Assembly (NCBI GenBank): GCA_963693365.1
Contig: CAVNZM010000005.1
Coordinates: 5,587,167 to 5,651,166 of the forward strand
Length of the DNA stretch: 64,000 bases
Source of the DNA: Amoebidium appalachense
Taxonomy: Eukaryota; Protista; Ichthyosporea
Direction: 5' to 3'
Shown here: piece after piece, positions 308 through 19,986 of the stretch
Layout of the letters: each line of letters starts with the position of its first letter
Position numbering within the stretch: position 1 is the first letter of the stretch
The notes under the pieces: generated by a model
What the model was told of the DNA's origin: nothing
The model's database searches: none
What the model saw: only the letters and a program-made list of their open reading frames with translations
Made by a program: the position numbers and the translations under genes

Positions 308-1881
308 AACCAGACCGAGTTCTTCTCGTGTGACAACTGCAACATTCGAATCCGCAAAAACCAAAAGAGTTACATGTGCAACATGTATCACTTCCCTCCC
401 CCCCCCCCCCCCCCCCCCCCCCCCCCCCCCCCCCCAAAAAAAAAAAAAAAAAAGAAAAAAGCGCCCATTCTACTTTAACCACCATCACCATCACCCACCC
501 ACCTGCCAAAACGACCACACCCTTGACTCTGCTTATGGATTTGATGCGTGCATGTTAGCAGATTGTTTCATGGGCCCTAGCATTCGTTCGTTTCACACAG
601 TTATTCGCAGTACTGTCAAAAAAAAAAAATTTTTTTTTTTTTTGTTAACCAGAACGCCGGGGGGGGGGGGGGGGGGGGGGGGGGGGGGGGGGGTGGAGGG
701 GGGGGGTGGGGAGGGTTGGAGGGGGGGGGGGGGGGGGGAAGGGAGGGGGGGGGGGGGGGGGGGGGGGGAGTGCAGTCGGAGAGGACCAAACCAAAATGTC
801 TATGGCTCAAGTAACACACCGTAAACCCCTACCACATAGCGTCCTCACAATGGGACGGTGGTTGCCCCCCCCCCCCCCCCCCCCCCCCCCCCCCCCCCCC
901 CCCCCCGCGCCGTGGCTGCCGCCGCCGCCGCCGCCGCCGCCGCCGCCGCCGCCCATGCCAGCTCAGGTCCACATCTTTTCCATTTCTCCTCTGAGATCGA
1001 AACTTGGCAGTTAGAATTGGGCCATCCTACATAGGCAGCTTTAATCACACATTTCCTCCTCTCGGCTCACACTTCAACTCACCCCTCCCCTTGTAACAGG
1101 TGTGAGACATACACTTATCCGTTCCACAGCTTCGACATCTGCAACAAGTAAGACCCCCCCCCCCTCCCCTCCCCACCCTCCCCCACTGCATGCTCGCTGC
1201 CGTGTACTCTTCTCCGCTTTCTTTTTTTCTTTTCCTCACCCTGACAGATGTGAGTCTGTGCACAAATTCGTCGGCGATTCCACCCTTCTTGAACAATTTC
1301 AGTGTTTTCTGTGTTTTGGGATACACAGCCGTATTTGGATACTATGGTCATTCCGTGCGAACGAAAGCACGTCCTGAGCACCATCTGAATGGATCAAAAA
1401 CATTTCTTTCCTCGTGGACTGATGCGTTTATCACATTTAGCATAGTCATAAACATACCAAATTAATCCTAAGTTCTGACTAAACCGACTCTTTTTGACTG
1501 CGTAACTCATTCAAGGTGCCAGTATGCATGGATCTCTTGCGCCTCCCCTGCGACCATCGTCACCCCCCCCCCCCCCCCCCCCCCCCCCCCATCCCCCCGG
1601 CTCCTTCCCCCCCCCCCCACCCCCCCACCCAAAAAAAGAAAAAAATCCCCCCTCCCCCCTCCCCCCTCCCCCCTTCCCTGCCACTGCCATCACCACCCAC
1701 CTACCCACCCACCCAATAGCAATTTCCTGCCTGTGTTATGCCCAACTAATCTAATTTAACCTCCACACTTACACCTTGGTCTATTTTTAGATGCTTCCAC
1801 AACACCGATGCTGCCGACAAACACAAACACGGCCGGGGGGTCTTCACAGCACGAGTCCATGCCCCAGCCCCAAAACCTCAG
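308..1881 (+). other. ZZ-type zinc finger coding segment (3 exons) of the MTase gene
   Basis: Spliced 308-384/1100-1147/1791-1881 gives [60 protein letters not shown]. This matches the ZZ consensus CxxC..CxxC..FDLCxxCF..HxH. Confidence 0.8.
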
Positions 1882-4800
1882 GTCCCCCCCCCCCCCCCCC
1901 CCCCCCCCCAACCCTTCTCCCCCCCTCCCACACCCACCCGCCCACCCATACAACCCTCAACCCCACCCCCTATTCCCTTAAAAGAGAGAGGTGGGGAAGA
2001 GGTATTCACAAAACTCGTAACAACCACCACCGTGTGGTGTGTGTGTGTGTGTGTGTGTCTGTGTGTGTGCTTTCGCGCGTGCGCACACAGTCTGTGCACA
2101 TGCATATGGTGTGTTTGTGTTTTAATAGTGGCACCTGCCTGCCCGCAGCCAGCCCCGCTCCTCCCTGCCTGTTTTCCCTCCCAGCCCTCCTATTCGAGCT
2201 TTAGCATCTACCAATCAAACTGTGCAACATGGGTATGTGCACGTGGACACACTCATACTAACACTCACCCACACACAACCCAACACACACATGCACACAT
2301 ACACACACGTGTGCGTGCATACATATACGCGCGCGCACGCACACGCACACGCACACGCACACGCACACGCACACGCACACGCACACGCACACGCACACGC
2401 ACACGCACACTCACACGCACACGCACACGCACACGCACACGCACACAGGCCCAACAACCGTCCAAGGGAGGCAGTCCCATCAAGAACCACCCCAAGGGGT
2501 CCACGTGTGGATTTTGCGGTGCCAAAAACTGCAAAGAATGGCGGGAAGGTATGTTTGTGCCTGTTTGAATCTGATGGCTAACGTCCGAAGTTTTCCCTGT
2601 TGACTAGATGTATGGGTTTGAATTTTTCTCTTTTTTTGAATCCCGTTTTGTCTCCGGAGGAGCTTCCTAGGGGTCTCTCATAGGAACTACCTTCTTCCAC
2701 TAAGCAACGAGTGTAGTCTAGCTACGGTGCTGATGGTGCAATCAGCTAAGCTATATGGATTTAATTGGTTAATCAGCTTTTCGAGACGGAAAAATCGTTC
2801 ATCGTTTTTAACTTTCCAGGAAGTTGGGCATCACTTTCTTGCACCTCTTGCCCTCACCCCCCTTCTCCCCTCCCCCCTCCCCCCCCCCCCCCTCCCCCCC
2901 CCCTCGCCCATTTTCACCCCGGCCCTCCACCCCTCTCTCACTTTTCACCCCAGGGTTTGGGGGGATCCTGCTATGCAAGGGTTGCTACGAACAGACCAAT
3001 CGCAGCGCCCCGGGCAATGCTGGTGACATAGACGACTATGCCTATGGCAGGTAAAGAACCCCCCCCCCCCCCCCTCCCCTGTCACTCTCGCGTCCCTCTC
3101 CCTCTCCCCCCCCCCCTCCCCCCCCCCCCCCCCCCACTTTCTCCTTCTTCCAACACCCGAGTTTCCTTCCAACCGTTGTTGAGAAAAGAAAGAGTGGTAA
3201 AAACGGACATCGGAACTACAGGAGATGAGAAAAGAAGGAACAGGCAGGACGAGAAAGAAGATTGAGCACGTGGATGATTAGAAAAAGAGAGGGGAACAAA
3301 GCAAAAGGAAGGAAAGAGAAGGTGGGGAAGAACGCAAAAGGAAACTAGAAAGAATAAAAGGGGAATGGAGGATGGGTAGAGTATAAGCGGAAGCCTTGCC
3401 AGCTTCGAAATTGGAATGTAGTTCAAGACGACCTGAACTCATGAAGGGAGTGGGGGGATCTTTGAGTGGTGGTTTTCAAGGAGGCTATGGGATGGTTGTG
3501 TTGTGGCAGTCCACCTCGGAGCCTCCCATTCTCTCTGCTGAAAATTTAAAAGACCCCCCTCTCACAAGTGCCCTCTCGGTCCTTTTCACATTCCCGCCAT
3601 TTTTCGCTCACCTGTTAGGAACAAGCCCCACACACAACCCCCTGTGGCACGTGTACAGCCCCCCCAGTCCCCCCCCTCCCCCCCCCCCCCCCCCCCCCTC
3701 CCCTTCCCCCCAAGCCTCCTAACATACACACAGACGAACACACAAGCACACAAATGCATGTGCACGCACCCATGCCCCGCCAACCCGCCTGTTCTGACAA
3801 TTCTTTGCCGATGCCGACATACATGCACACACGACGTACACACACAGCACACACACACACACACACACACACACACACACACACACACACACACACACAC
3901 ACACACACACACACACACACACACACACACACACACACACACACACACACACACACACACACACACACACACACACACACACACACACACACAAACACGC
4001 ATACACACACGCGTGCGCACACACACGCACGCACGCACGCACGCATGCACGCATGCATGCACACACACACACACGCACGACGCACGCGCGCGCACACACA
4101 CACAAACACACACACACACACACACACACACACAGATACTTCACCCGCCACCTGTGTGCCGATACCAGCCAAGACCACGTCCAAAACCGACTCCTCGACA
4201 CCTACGGCCCATGCAGCACGTAATAAACCCCCCCCCCCCCCCCTTCTCCCCCCCCCCTCCCCTCCCCCCCCCCCCCCCCCTCCCCCCCCCCCCCCCCCCC
4301 CCCCCCCAAAAAAAAAGAAAAAGAAAAGAAAAGAAAAGAAAAGAAGAAAAAGAAACGAAAAGGCGGACTCCCCCCCTTTCCCCTCCCCCCTCCCCCCCTC
4401 CCCCGGCCCCTTTTTCCAACATTACTTGGCCGCCGCTGGGCTCCCAGTCAGTTTTCTTTTTTTTTTTTTTTTGGAATATGAATGGTGATGGCTCTTACAA
4501 ATGCAACCACAATACATCTGCCTATGACAATTCTTCACCGGATATACCTGTTCACGTGTGAAGTGCATGCCAACAATATGCACATGGGTATGCACCCGTA
4601 AGCCACAGCATCCAAACCAACGTGACACTCATATATGTGTCCCCGTGCGTGCACACACATGCGTTTTCGATGCTCACACCCCTTTTCACATTCATGCACA
4701 GACGCGCGCGCACACCCACACACACACACACACACACACACACACACACACACACACACACACACACACACACACACACACACACACACACACACACACA

Positions 4801-19800: not shown

Positions 19801-19986
19801 ATCATCTTAAATCCCCCACGACGCCCCAATCAAATAAATTTGCATACATTCTGACCCGTGATTCTGCCCCAATCAGGTCTCGCCAACTGGCAGTGGTCGC
19901 AGGAGCCGTCATCCAATCACAAAGACCCGCTGCCAATCATTCACGCTACATACTATCTGCTGAGGCGAAAGATGACCAGGAACTGA
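308..19986 (+). CDS. ZZ-finger + GATA-like finger + amino-(N6-adenine/N4-cytosine) DNA methyltransferase + degenerate second MTase-like domain (5' end upstream of window)
   Basis: Hand-spliced GT-AG exons, phase-consistent except for the extra G noted: 308-384, 1100-1147, 1791-1881, 2449-2548, 2954-3050, 4136-4219, 4882-4957, 5656-5781, 6430-6543, 7151-7309, 7901-7987, 8720-8845, 9652-9742, [10383-10420, 10717-10810, 11431-11477, 12284-12349, 12798-12867: less certain linker], 13528-13617, 14303-14410, 15196-15266, 16488-16585 (one extra G in G-run), 17037-17099, 18134-18463, 19224-19265, 19877-19986 (TGA). Motifs: CDNC..YMCNMC..SFDICNKCF..HKH; CGFC-x17-[86 protein letters not shown]-terminal [37 protein letters not shown]. 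Confidence 0.85.
2335..2447. repeat. (CACGCA)n hexamer microsatellite abutting splice acceptor
   Basis: Direct reading. The tract ends GCACACAG at the 2449 exon. Confidence 0.9.
2449..3050 (+). other. GATA-like C-x2-C-x17-C-x2-C zinc finger coding segment of the MTase gene
   Basis: Exons 2449-2548 and 2954-3050 join to [26 protein letters not shown], with exactly 17 residues between the Cys pairs and the conserved WR. Confidence 0.75.
4882..9742 (+). other. Intact amino-methyltransferase catalytic domain (motif I before motif IV)
   Basis: SAM-binding NFLGRGT (exon 5656-5781), GVDVN (6430-6543), GDAR and catalytic-type SHPPY (7151-7309), RVLKPGG (7901-7987), GDTR (8720-8845) and HEY (9652-9742). 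Confidence 0.85.
17697..18128. repeat. Long imperfect (CA)n microsatellite (one example of dozens in the window)
   Basis: More than 400 bp of CA-type repeat directly preceding acceptor 18133. Confidence 0.9.

Follow-up and report, generated by a model that had tools for sequence, protein, structure and literature searches.

Does a chromatin-tethered DNA methyltransferase described from basal fungi occur outside the fungi? We address this question with a 64,000-nucleotide (nt) stretch of DNA (contig CAVNZM010000005.1, positions 5,587,167 to 5,651,166, forward strand; hereafter the window), in which positions 308-19986 on the + strand hold the 3′ part of an intron-rich methyltransferase gene. 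On the strength of its encoded sequence, this gene is a member of the Group-1 Clade 4 "fungal" N6-methyltransferases of Iyer, Zhang, and Aravind. With a probability that we put at roughly one in two, it is a Clade 4 member, in a host that is likely non-fungal and probably an ichthyosporean, and its product is a chromatin-tethered enzyme methylating N6 of DNA adenine at sparse sites, probably directed at single strands. Published sources are cited by identifier, and statements about them refer to the portions that were available.

A spliced gene that begins upstream of the window

How much of the gene does the window hold, and is it spliced? From the window sequence, we rebuilt 25 exons with 2587 coding nt. 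The introns are GT-AG in 24 of 24 cases and run from 405 to 1221 nt (mean 712). Coding islands are short and set between poly-C and CA-repeat introns (window 1-22000), with a poly-C run just 3′ of the donor in 17 of the 24 introns of the methyltransferase gene. Across the whole window, introns show a genome-wide style in which poly-C follows the donor closely and many acceptors have CA repeats that end in CACAG; C/G skew tracks gene strand. The original prediction had joined about 26 exons into one unit; the unit stands, at a count of 25.

308-384, 1100-1147, 1791-1881, 2449-2548, 2954-3050, + strand: exons 1-5
4136-4219, 4882-4957, 5656-5781, 6430-6543, 7151-7309, + strand: exons 6-10
7901-7987, 8720-8845, 9652-9742, 10618-10810, 11431-11533, + strand: exons 11-15
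12284-12349, 12798-12867, 13528-13617, 14336-14410, 15196-15266, + strand: exons 16-20
16488-16585, 17037-17099, 18134-18463, 19224-19265, 19877-19986, + strand: exons 21-25
308-19986, + strand: 3′ part, about 860 codons in 25 exons, of a spliced gene whose 5′ part lies upstream of the window
308-1881, + strand: ZZ-type zinc finger, exons 1-3 (C8, C11, C24, C27, C40, C43, H53, and H55 of the model)
2449-3050, + strand: GATA-like finger, exons 4-5 (C-x2-C-x17-C-x2-C with WR, without NACGL)
4882-9742, + strand: intact unpermuted Rossmann amino-methyltransferase domain, exons 7-13, from homology and motifs
5749-5772, + strand: S-adenosylmethionine (SAM)-binding motif I, NFLGRGTD (identical in 120 of 137 eukaryotic cores)
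7241-7255, + strand: catalytic motif IV, SHPPY (in 137 of 137 eukaryotic cores)
10618-10810, + strand: low-complexity linker, exon 14 (an insertion relative to the family profile, longer than in homologues)
11431-19986, + strand: degenerate second methyltransferase domain, exons 15-25 (no F-x-G-x-G; VPH for SHPPY)
13528-13617, + strand: helical insert YERRR...NQAMLKSLG, exon 18, occupying the position of Iyer's KRI domain ahead of strand 4
16529-16536, + strand: run of eight G; exon 21 frame broken as assembled, homology resuming directly after in another frame
19984-19986, + strand: stop codon TGA, end of exon 25

The gene is real and spliced. In a 4718-nt contig of sequencing run X1, matched with 0 mismatches, exons 8, 9, 10, and 11 are adjacent, and a contig of run X2 joins exon 10 to exon 11; run X3 gave no match to the stretch queried (4881-8100). 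All three runs belong to one sample of one study, and their description as RNA is a tool's guess, none of the runs listed as containing the sequence being registered as RNA; for X1 and X2 the guess is supported by their intron-free exon joins. The X1 contig carries 3397 nt 5′ of exon 8, compared with 581 nt of exon in the window, and the gene therefore begins upstream. The excess of about 2.8 kb is consistent with upstream chromo, first ZZ, and PHD domains. Toward the 3′ end the contig extends 842 nt past exon 11 and, by the model, stops early in exon 20, before the G run. Of the exon check by RNA that came with the original prediction, the joins of exons 8-11 are now in hand in an RNA-like contig, while the finger-to-methyltransferase junctions (exons 1-8) are ones we infer from frame continuity and colinear homologues. 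The extent first given to the gene covered only its C-terminal part, as family members have chromo/Tudor-like and PHD readers upstream; the 25-exon model contains no start codon, and exon 1 opens at an acceptor.

An unguided six-frame scan placed 13 of its 17 top rows, in colinear order, on exons 1, 2, 4, 6-13, 18, and 25, with E ≤ 1.2e-5 for only 5 of those 13. Absent from the top 30 rows were the 12 exons 3, 5, 14-17, and 19-24, which rest on splice signals, frame, and whole-model alignment. In a random-chain control, 1 of 20,000 chains was free of stops, a figure not relied on because the exons had been picked to be open.

Could the gene be a decaying copy? Exons 1-20 with the start of exon 21 give 661 codons without a stop, and after the G run another 197 codons lead, in another frame, to the TGA. 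The broken frame and the long branch of the window protein in trees would both fit a copy cut by a real frameshift in exon 21. We nevertheless regard this as extremely unlikely: about 860 codons contain no other break, and this one falls at the longest exonic homopolymer in an assembly rich in homopolymers; beyond it the exons remain open and homologous until a stop where the family usually ends, and the gene appears to be transcribed and spliced. The break is probably an assembly error.

Intron 9 holds, at about 6978-7098, a 40-50 nt element matched at ~90% by many X1 and X2 contigs, with no second copy within the window; it is probably a dispersed repeat or a transposon end.

An intact and a degenerate methyltransferase domain behind two zinc fingers

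The domain order of the original prediction (ZZ finger, GATA-like finger, methyltransferase, degenerate methyltransferase) is borne out by the spliced model and by its colinearity with the family profile, and all the motifs quoted there are present in the model in the order given. All eight ZZ ligands are kept across 125 family proteins, and the family profile matched the p300, CBP, and Ada2 ZZ structures weakly (best E = 0.003); exon 1 alone had no Pfam match. Going by p62 spacing, residues D9, N12, and D38 of the window finger presumably stand at the places of p62 D129, N132, and D149. Roles for p62 ZZ residues D129, N132, D147, and D149 are described in PMC6197226. For the GATA-like finger, the family profile matched GATA-3 at E = 0.003, and comparison with the true GATA factor encoded nearby gave an hhalign probability of 76; Pfam scans of single exons found no GATA match.

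The catalytic core is 42-49% identical to the top 25 eukaryotic homologues and up to 37% identical to bacterial ones, in which the active site reads THPPY (86 of 87 prokaryotic relatives). Beyond motifs I and IV, the first methyltransferase domain also keeps HEY. In the second domain both motifs are missing across the family, in agreement with the active-plus-dead pair originally proposed. Folded alone, the second domain of homologue P0080 gave a predicted local distance difference test (pLDDT) score of 80, and a search of 48,161 chains returned methyltransferases or methyltransferase-fold domains as all 50 of the best matches, at a modest Z of 6.5-8.2. Single exons yielded only sub-threshold Pfam and PDB matches and an Atlas lead below 0.9, a word-index search with exon 8 had no match, neither exon 8 nor homologue P0002 matched phages, and an Rfam scan of the window found nothing.

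Might such a protein be a multivalent chromatin scaffold, with methyl transfer negligible in vivo or aimed at protein? The full-length protein consists for the most part of reader domains (over half), one of its two methyltransferase copies is dead, and no orphan DNA mark is known. Set against this is the contrast between the two domains, the second visibly degenerate and the first with SHPPY invariant in every eukaryotic core and motif I nearly so, and we consider a mere scaffold very unlikely.

Membership in Clade 4

To which family does the gene belong? Exon 10 alone, searched against 1.84 billion representatives, gave 30 matches; N6_N4_Mtase (PF01555) was present in all 19 of those scanned with Pfam, the long ones also carried PHD-like, MBT-, Tudor-, or chromo-like domains, and a THUMP domain was found in none of the 19. 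The catalytic region of one homologue, used as a query, matched 141 proteins. Among the best 120 of these, the 115 named proteins all belong to chytrids, Mucoromycota, or Zoopagomycota; the weakest 21 may hold further non-fungal members. The spliced model itself matches 138 of 140 collected family proteins, including Spizellomyces SPPG_04959 at 31% identity over 567 residues. Against a family profile built from 32 homologues with the window protein excluded, its native-frame part scored 494 bits over positions 106-763, and the sequence beyond the G run aligned to 768-847 and 803-859 (27.2 and 7.7 bits). The model is thus colinear with the family over about 760 profile positions, beginning at the second ZZ finger and reaching the C-terminal strand, and also with the published Rhizophagus and Mucorales alignment rows (PMC4738411).

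Clade 4 was described in 2015, from basal fungi only, with the architecture CHROMO x3-4 + ZZ + PHD + PHD + ZZ + GATA + methyltransferase + methyltransferase(KRI); chromatin-linked DNA adenine methylation was predicted for it, and Iyer et al. inferred a single-strand preference (PMC4738411). The window gene has an unpermuted catalytic domain, with motif I before motif IV, and a ZZ and then a GATA finger directly before it (junctions from frame and homology). It also has a C-terminal inactive methyltransferase with a KRI-type insert between strands 3 and 4 (frame break as assembled); the exon 18 insert would be of KRI type judging from its position and residues. The link to early-diverging fungi drawn by the original prediction is hence correct and corresponds to Clade 4, while its "undescribed epigenetic system" is not new, since the domain layout has been published, together with the proposal that it serves chromatin-linked DNA adenine methylation (PMC4738411). 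In the literature searched (few subscription papers and no supplements beyond Iyer's), we found neither experimental work on Clade 4 nor a report of it outside fungi; the available portions of PMC12695648, PMC13297926, PMC8298701, PMC12019607, PMC12344493, PMC11244446, PMC8885841, PMC5388411, and bioRxiv 2021.11.30.470311 contain neither. Recent fungal and pan-eukaryote literature on N6-methyladenine (6mA), so far as it was available, discusses only MT-A70 enzymes and MetB.

Range beyond fungi

Is the family confined to fungi? The exon 10 search also returned a 1947-amino-acid protein of the ichthyosporean Chromosphaera perkinsii (EukProt P0023; not among the best 120 of the 141 matches above) with the full Clade 4 architecture, and therefore the family, as judged by domain content, is firmly not fungus-only. 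That the range reaches the window's own, non-fungal host appears likely from the trees, which were built on a hand-picked subset of 224 cores after dropping fragments with fewer than 150 aligned residues. In the first tree, built from 54 rows and 251 columns with a prokaryotic outgroup, a clade (support 100/99) united 28 named fungi with 8 further rows, and the window protein, Chromosphaera, and five environmental proteins lay outside it; constraining the window protein to pair with Chromosphaera gave a likelihood 0.84 higher (approximately unbiased test, p-AU 0.53). The second tree, from 28 eukaryotic rows and 580 columns and with the window protein restricted to its native-frame part, paired the two at 97/90 inside a seven-row group at 100/96, subject to a long-branch warning. 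When Chromosphaera was omitted from a quick tree, the window protein stayed in an environmental group (99), apart from the long rows on the fungal side. The window protein fell outside the named-fungi clade in all three trees, so the original suggestion of a non-fungal opisthokont host is probably right; that the host is an ichthyosporean is more likely than not. These patterns suggest that the family likely predates the animal-fungus split.

The original prediction had instead read long-ago domestication from the many introns. This argument fails, as a neighboring BPNT1 gene has 8 introns in 293 codons and, by eye, no catalytic-core intron position is common to the window and six metagenomic loci; the case for age rests on taxonomic spread, not intron count. 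A metagenome scan yielded 15 further family loci, most of them intron-interrupted, the longer ones with the same domain order. Five metagenomic loci (L095, L097, L101, L107, and L108) come from intron-bearing eukaryotes with GC contents of 28-69% and carry a variant of the family. The five proteins P0001, P0002, P0006, P0014, and P0140 group with the window protein and Chromosphaera, apart from named fungi, and naming their hosts could push the origin of the family deeper. If the family is also present in ichthyosporeans, its acquisition shifts from a fungal to at least an opisthokont ancestor, or a transfer between fungi and holozoans is needed; in addition, animals would have lost a histone-read, DNA-write enzyme.

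Substrate of the enzyme

What does the intact domain methylate? Its bacterial relatives sit in restriction-modification operons, a context that favors a DNA substrate. A Dam-like or DpnII-like neighbor was present in 54 of 54 bacterial loci with full flanks; among the best 80 loci, a Dam-like gene lay within 3 kb in 70, a DpnII-like gene in 60, and either in 73. One example operon reads Dam, DpnII-like, Mrr-like, and THPPY enzyme (Dam confirmed, the DpnII-like and Mrr-like labels by reading only). The species C. thermocellum carries such an operon according to Iyer's list (PMC4738411; gene not sequence-matched), and its methylome, in the available text of PMC6791906, shows m6A at GATC and no m4C motif.

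The original prediction took xPPY as the mark of enzymes making 6mA or N4-methylcytosine (4mC), which the motif does not establish by itself: the best solved-structure matches are tRNA N2-methylguanosine (m2G) enzymes, and HPPY has His first, outside the D/N/S types listed in PMC8885841. The P0080 model matched Trm11 and TrmN at Z 17.5-17.9 (root-mean-square deviation 2.5-4.2 over 170-176 residues), tied with an uncharacterized archaeal methyltransferase at Z 18.6. Against the families themselves, a bacterial relative scored 44 bits on TIGR01177 (cut-off 317) and 29 on Trm14_Arch (cut-off 280), and three eukaryotic homologues matched neither. Of the Trm11 grouping proposed as part of a refutation, the likeness in fold is present, and the THUMP domain and a score at the family cut-off are absent.

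Several points weigh against a DNA adenine writer in a non-fungal host. The best solved-structure matches are Trm11, TrmN, and Trm14 (Z 16-18); among NCBIfam models, the bacterial relative comes closest to TIGR01177, though far under the cut-off. Identity to one query is 76-98% across the 80 bacterial loci, which represent one subfamily, not independent events. The exon 21 frameshift may be genuine, the first tree does not pair the window protein with Chromosphaera, and constraining it to group with fungi costs 7.1 in likelihood and is not rejected (p-AU 0.20). The window ZZ finger has Ser at the position that presumably corresponds to p62 D147. Solitary archaeal copies are also listed by Iyer et al. 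(PMC4738411), and the literature searched holds no assay of any Clade 4 member. Finally, Mucor carries the Clade 4 gene (P0025); deletion of the unrelated MetB removes 70-75% of its 6mA, and symmetric 6mA comes from the MTA1 complex (PMC11258239), and therefore little bulk 6mA is left there for the Clade 4 enzyme.

Some of these points would also fit a chromatin-tethered RNA methylase, acting on nascent transcripts, a small RNA, or the RNA of R-loops, at an exocyclic amine of A, G, or C, after a switch of substrate following capture. Such a switch has precedent in other bacterial-derived amino-methyltransferases, the single-strand preference inferred by Iyer et al. (PMC4738411) fits RNA too, known fungal 6mA is largely covered by MetB and MTA1 (PMC11258239), and the top structure matches are those to tRNA enzymes. 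We judge it unlikely, though worth taking seriously, because identity to Trm11 (18-21%) is at the level of a shared fold only, the 19 homologues scanned have no THUMP or similar RNA-binding Pfam domain, and the bacterial relatives belong to restriction-modification operons.

A DNA writer of 4mC, like rotifer N4CMT, seems decidedly unlikely. The operon partners are GATC adenine systems, the available C. thermocellum methylome lacks an m4C motif (PMC6791906), and N4CMT is permuted with an SPPY site (PMC8885841). On its side, Pfam N6_N4_Mtase does not separate the two bases, an HPPY site that is neither DPPY/NPPY nor SPPY (PMC8885841) leaves the base not predictable, and the fungal methylome literature searched, in its available portions, makes no mention of 4mC. 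Methylation of DNA adenine is thus the reading that we prefer.

Proposed mechanism and implications

How could such an enzyme work? For the window protein, we infer histone binding, substrate, base, and the role of the dead domain as follows. The upstream chromo/Tudor-like and PHD modules seen in homologues, together with the ZZ finger, would dock on histone tails, and the GATA-like finger would hold DNA, though with no strict specificity for GATA. In the first Rossmann domain, SAM would be bound at NFLGRGTD and the methyl group transferred at SHPPY, with the dead second domain as a built-in partner that may support the active domain or the substrate, as inactive MTA9 and METTL14 do for MT-A70 enzymes. 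The substrate would most likely be opened or single-stranded DNA, and the resulting mark would be sparse or short-lived.

The family occurs widely among early-diverging fungi, and its active site is invariant. Mucor and Spizellomyces carry the gene and have long-read methylomes, and knockouts of other writers exist in Mucor, which makes the mark directly testable. A broader scenario, which we consider possible but doubtful, is that a third DNA-modification system, as yet unmapped, existed beside 5-methylcytosine and AMT1-dependent 6mA in the common ancestor of animals and fungi. One polypeptide would have combined chromo/PHD/ZZ reading with methylation of single-stranded or bubble DNA (non-ApT 6mA or 4mC) by an HPPY site and a dead partner, kept in ichthyosporeans, early-diverging fungi, and other microbial eukaryotes and lost in animals and Dikarya. 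If the protein instead acts on RNA or serves as a scaffold, what is left is a modest range extension.

Genomic neighborhood

The rest of the window contains the following features.

About 22660-24400, - strand: exons encoding a tyrosine phosphatase of the Y_phosphatase3 type, with HCSHGKDRTG (Pfam E 3e-17)
About 32100-38600, + strand: exons for a C2 domain and for an OTU deubiquitinase domain, which may form one gene
43514-44791, - strand: uninterrupted 425-codon open reading frame encoding a canonical GATA zinc finger (Pfam E 2.4e-13)
46993-54747, - strand: gene for an animal-type BPNT1 (3′(2′),5′-bisphosphate nucleotidase), in nine exons
About 59370-63400, + strand: alpha/beta-hydrolase exons, with weak glucuronyl-esterase and S9 similarity below cut-off

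The lack of interruption in the GATA-factor frame is unusual in so intron-rich a region. The transcriptome-derived protein P0141 maps exon by exon on BPNT1 and is 100% identical over the exon queried. BPNT1 matches human and rat at E 1e-67; it is a weak marker of a non-fungal host because a literature search for the absence of animal-type BPNT1 from fungi found no paper.

Comparison with known systems

How does the window protein compare with known methyltransferases? MT-A70 enzymes (METTL3/AMT1) are circularly permuted, unlike the window domain. Rotifer N4CMT (PMC8885841) and Mucorales MetB (PMC11258239) are DNA amino-methyltransferases of bacterial origin with demonstrated activity in eukaryotic genomes. 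N4CMT is a permuted chromodomain fusion with SPPY (PMC8885841), whereas the window order is NFLGRGTD, then SHPPY; neither N4CMT nor MetB has a dead second domain or such a finger array. An identity with MetB (PF02384, MmeI-like) was rejected, the homologues matching PF01555 and not PF02384. Trm11, TrmN, and Trm14 are the closest solved folds and have xPPY in common with the window protein at 18-21% identity, but those enzymes act on tRNA and have a THUMP domain at the position that zinc fingers take in this family. The window finger has the C-x2-C-x17/18-C-x2-C spacing of GATA transcription factors and lacks their NACGL stretch, which the true GATA factor encoded nearby does have.

The second (THPPY) methyltransferase of DpnII operons, "DpnA-like" in the terms of Iyer et al., has the unpermuted fold and HPPY in common with the window protein at 33-37% identity. 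It is a single 244-amino-acid domain with no reader fingers and no dead copy, unlike the window protein. Pneumococcal DpnA is a permuted enzyme, and the likeness to "DpnA-like" enzymes may therefore be positional. The single-strand activity of the latter was inferred from pneumococcal DpnA (PMC4738411).

The nearest relatives are in Clade 4 itself. Chromosphaera P0023, which is unannotated, has PHD, ZZ, methyltransferase, and dead methyltransferase as in the family, a core 45% identical to that of the window protein, and, in common with it, QAI.YS after the motif and QRNC; both are long branches, and their pairing is not secure. Spizellomyces SPPG_04959 and Rhizophagus RirG_262840 share ZZ, GATA, unpermuted methyltransferase, and dead KRI-type methyltransferase with SHPPY. 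Relative to these fungal members, with which its catalytic core is about 45% identical, the window gene has many more and much longer introns, a longer linker, and no N-terminal readers visible within the window, and its product falls outside the named-fungi clade, in a host that is likely non-fungal.

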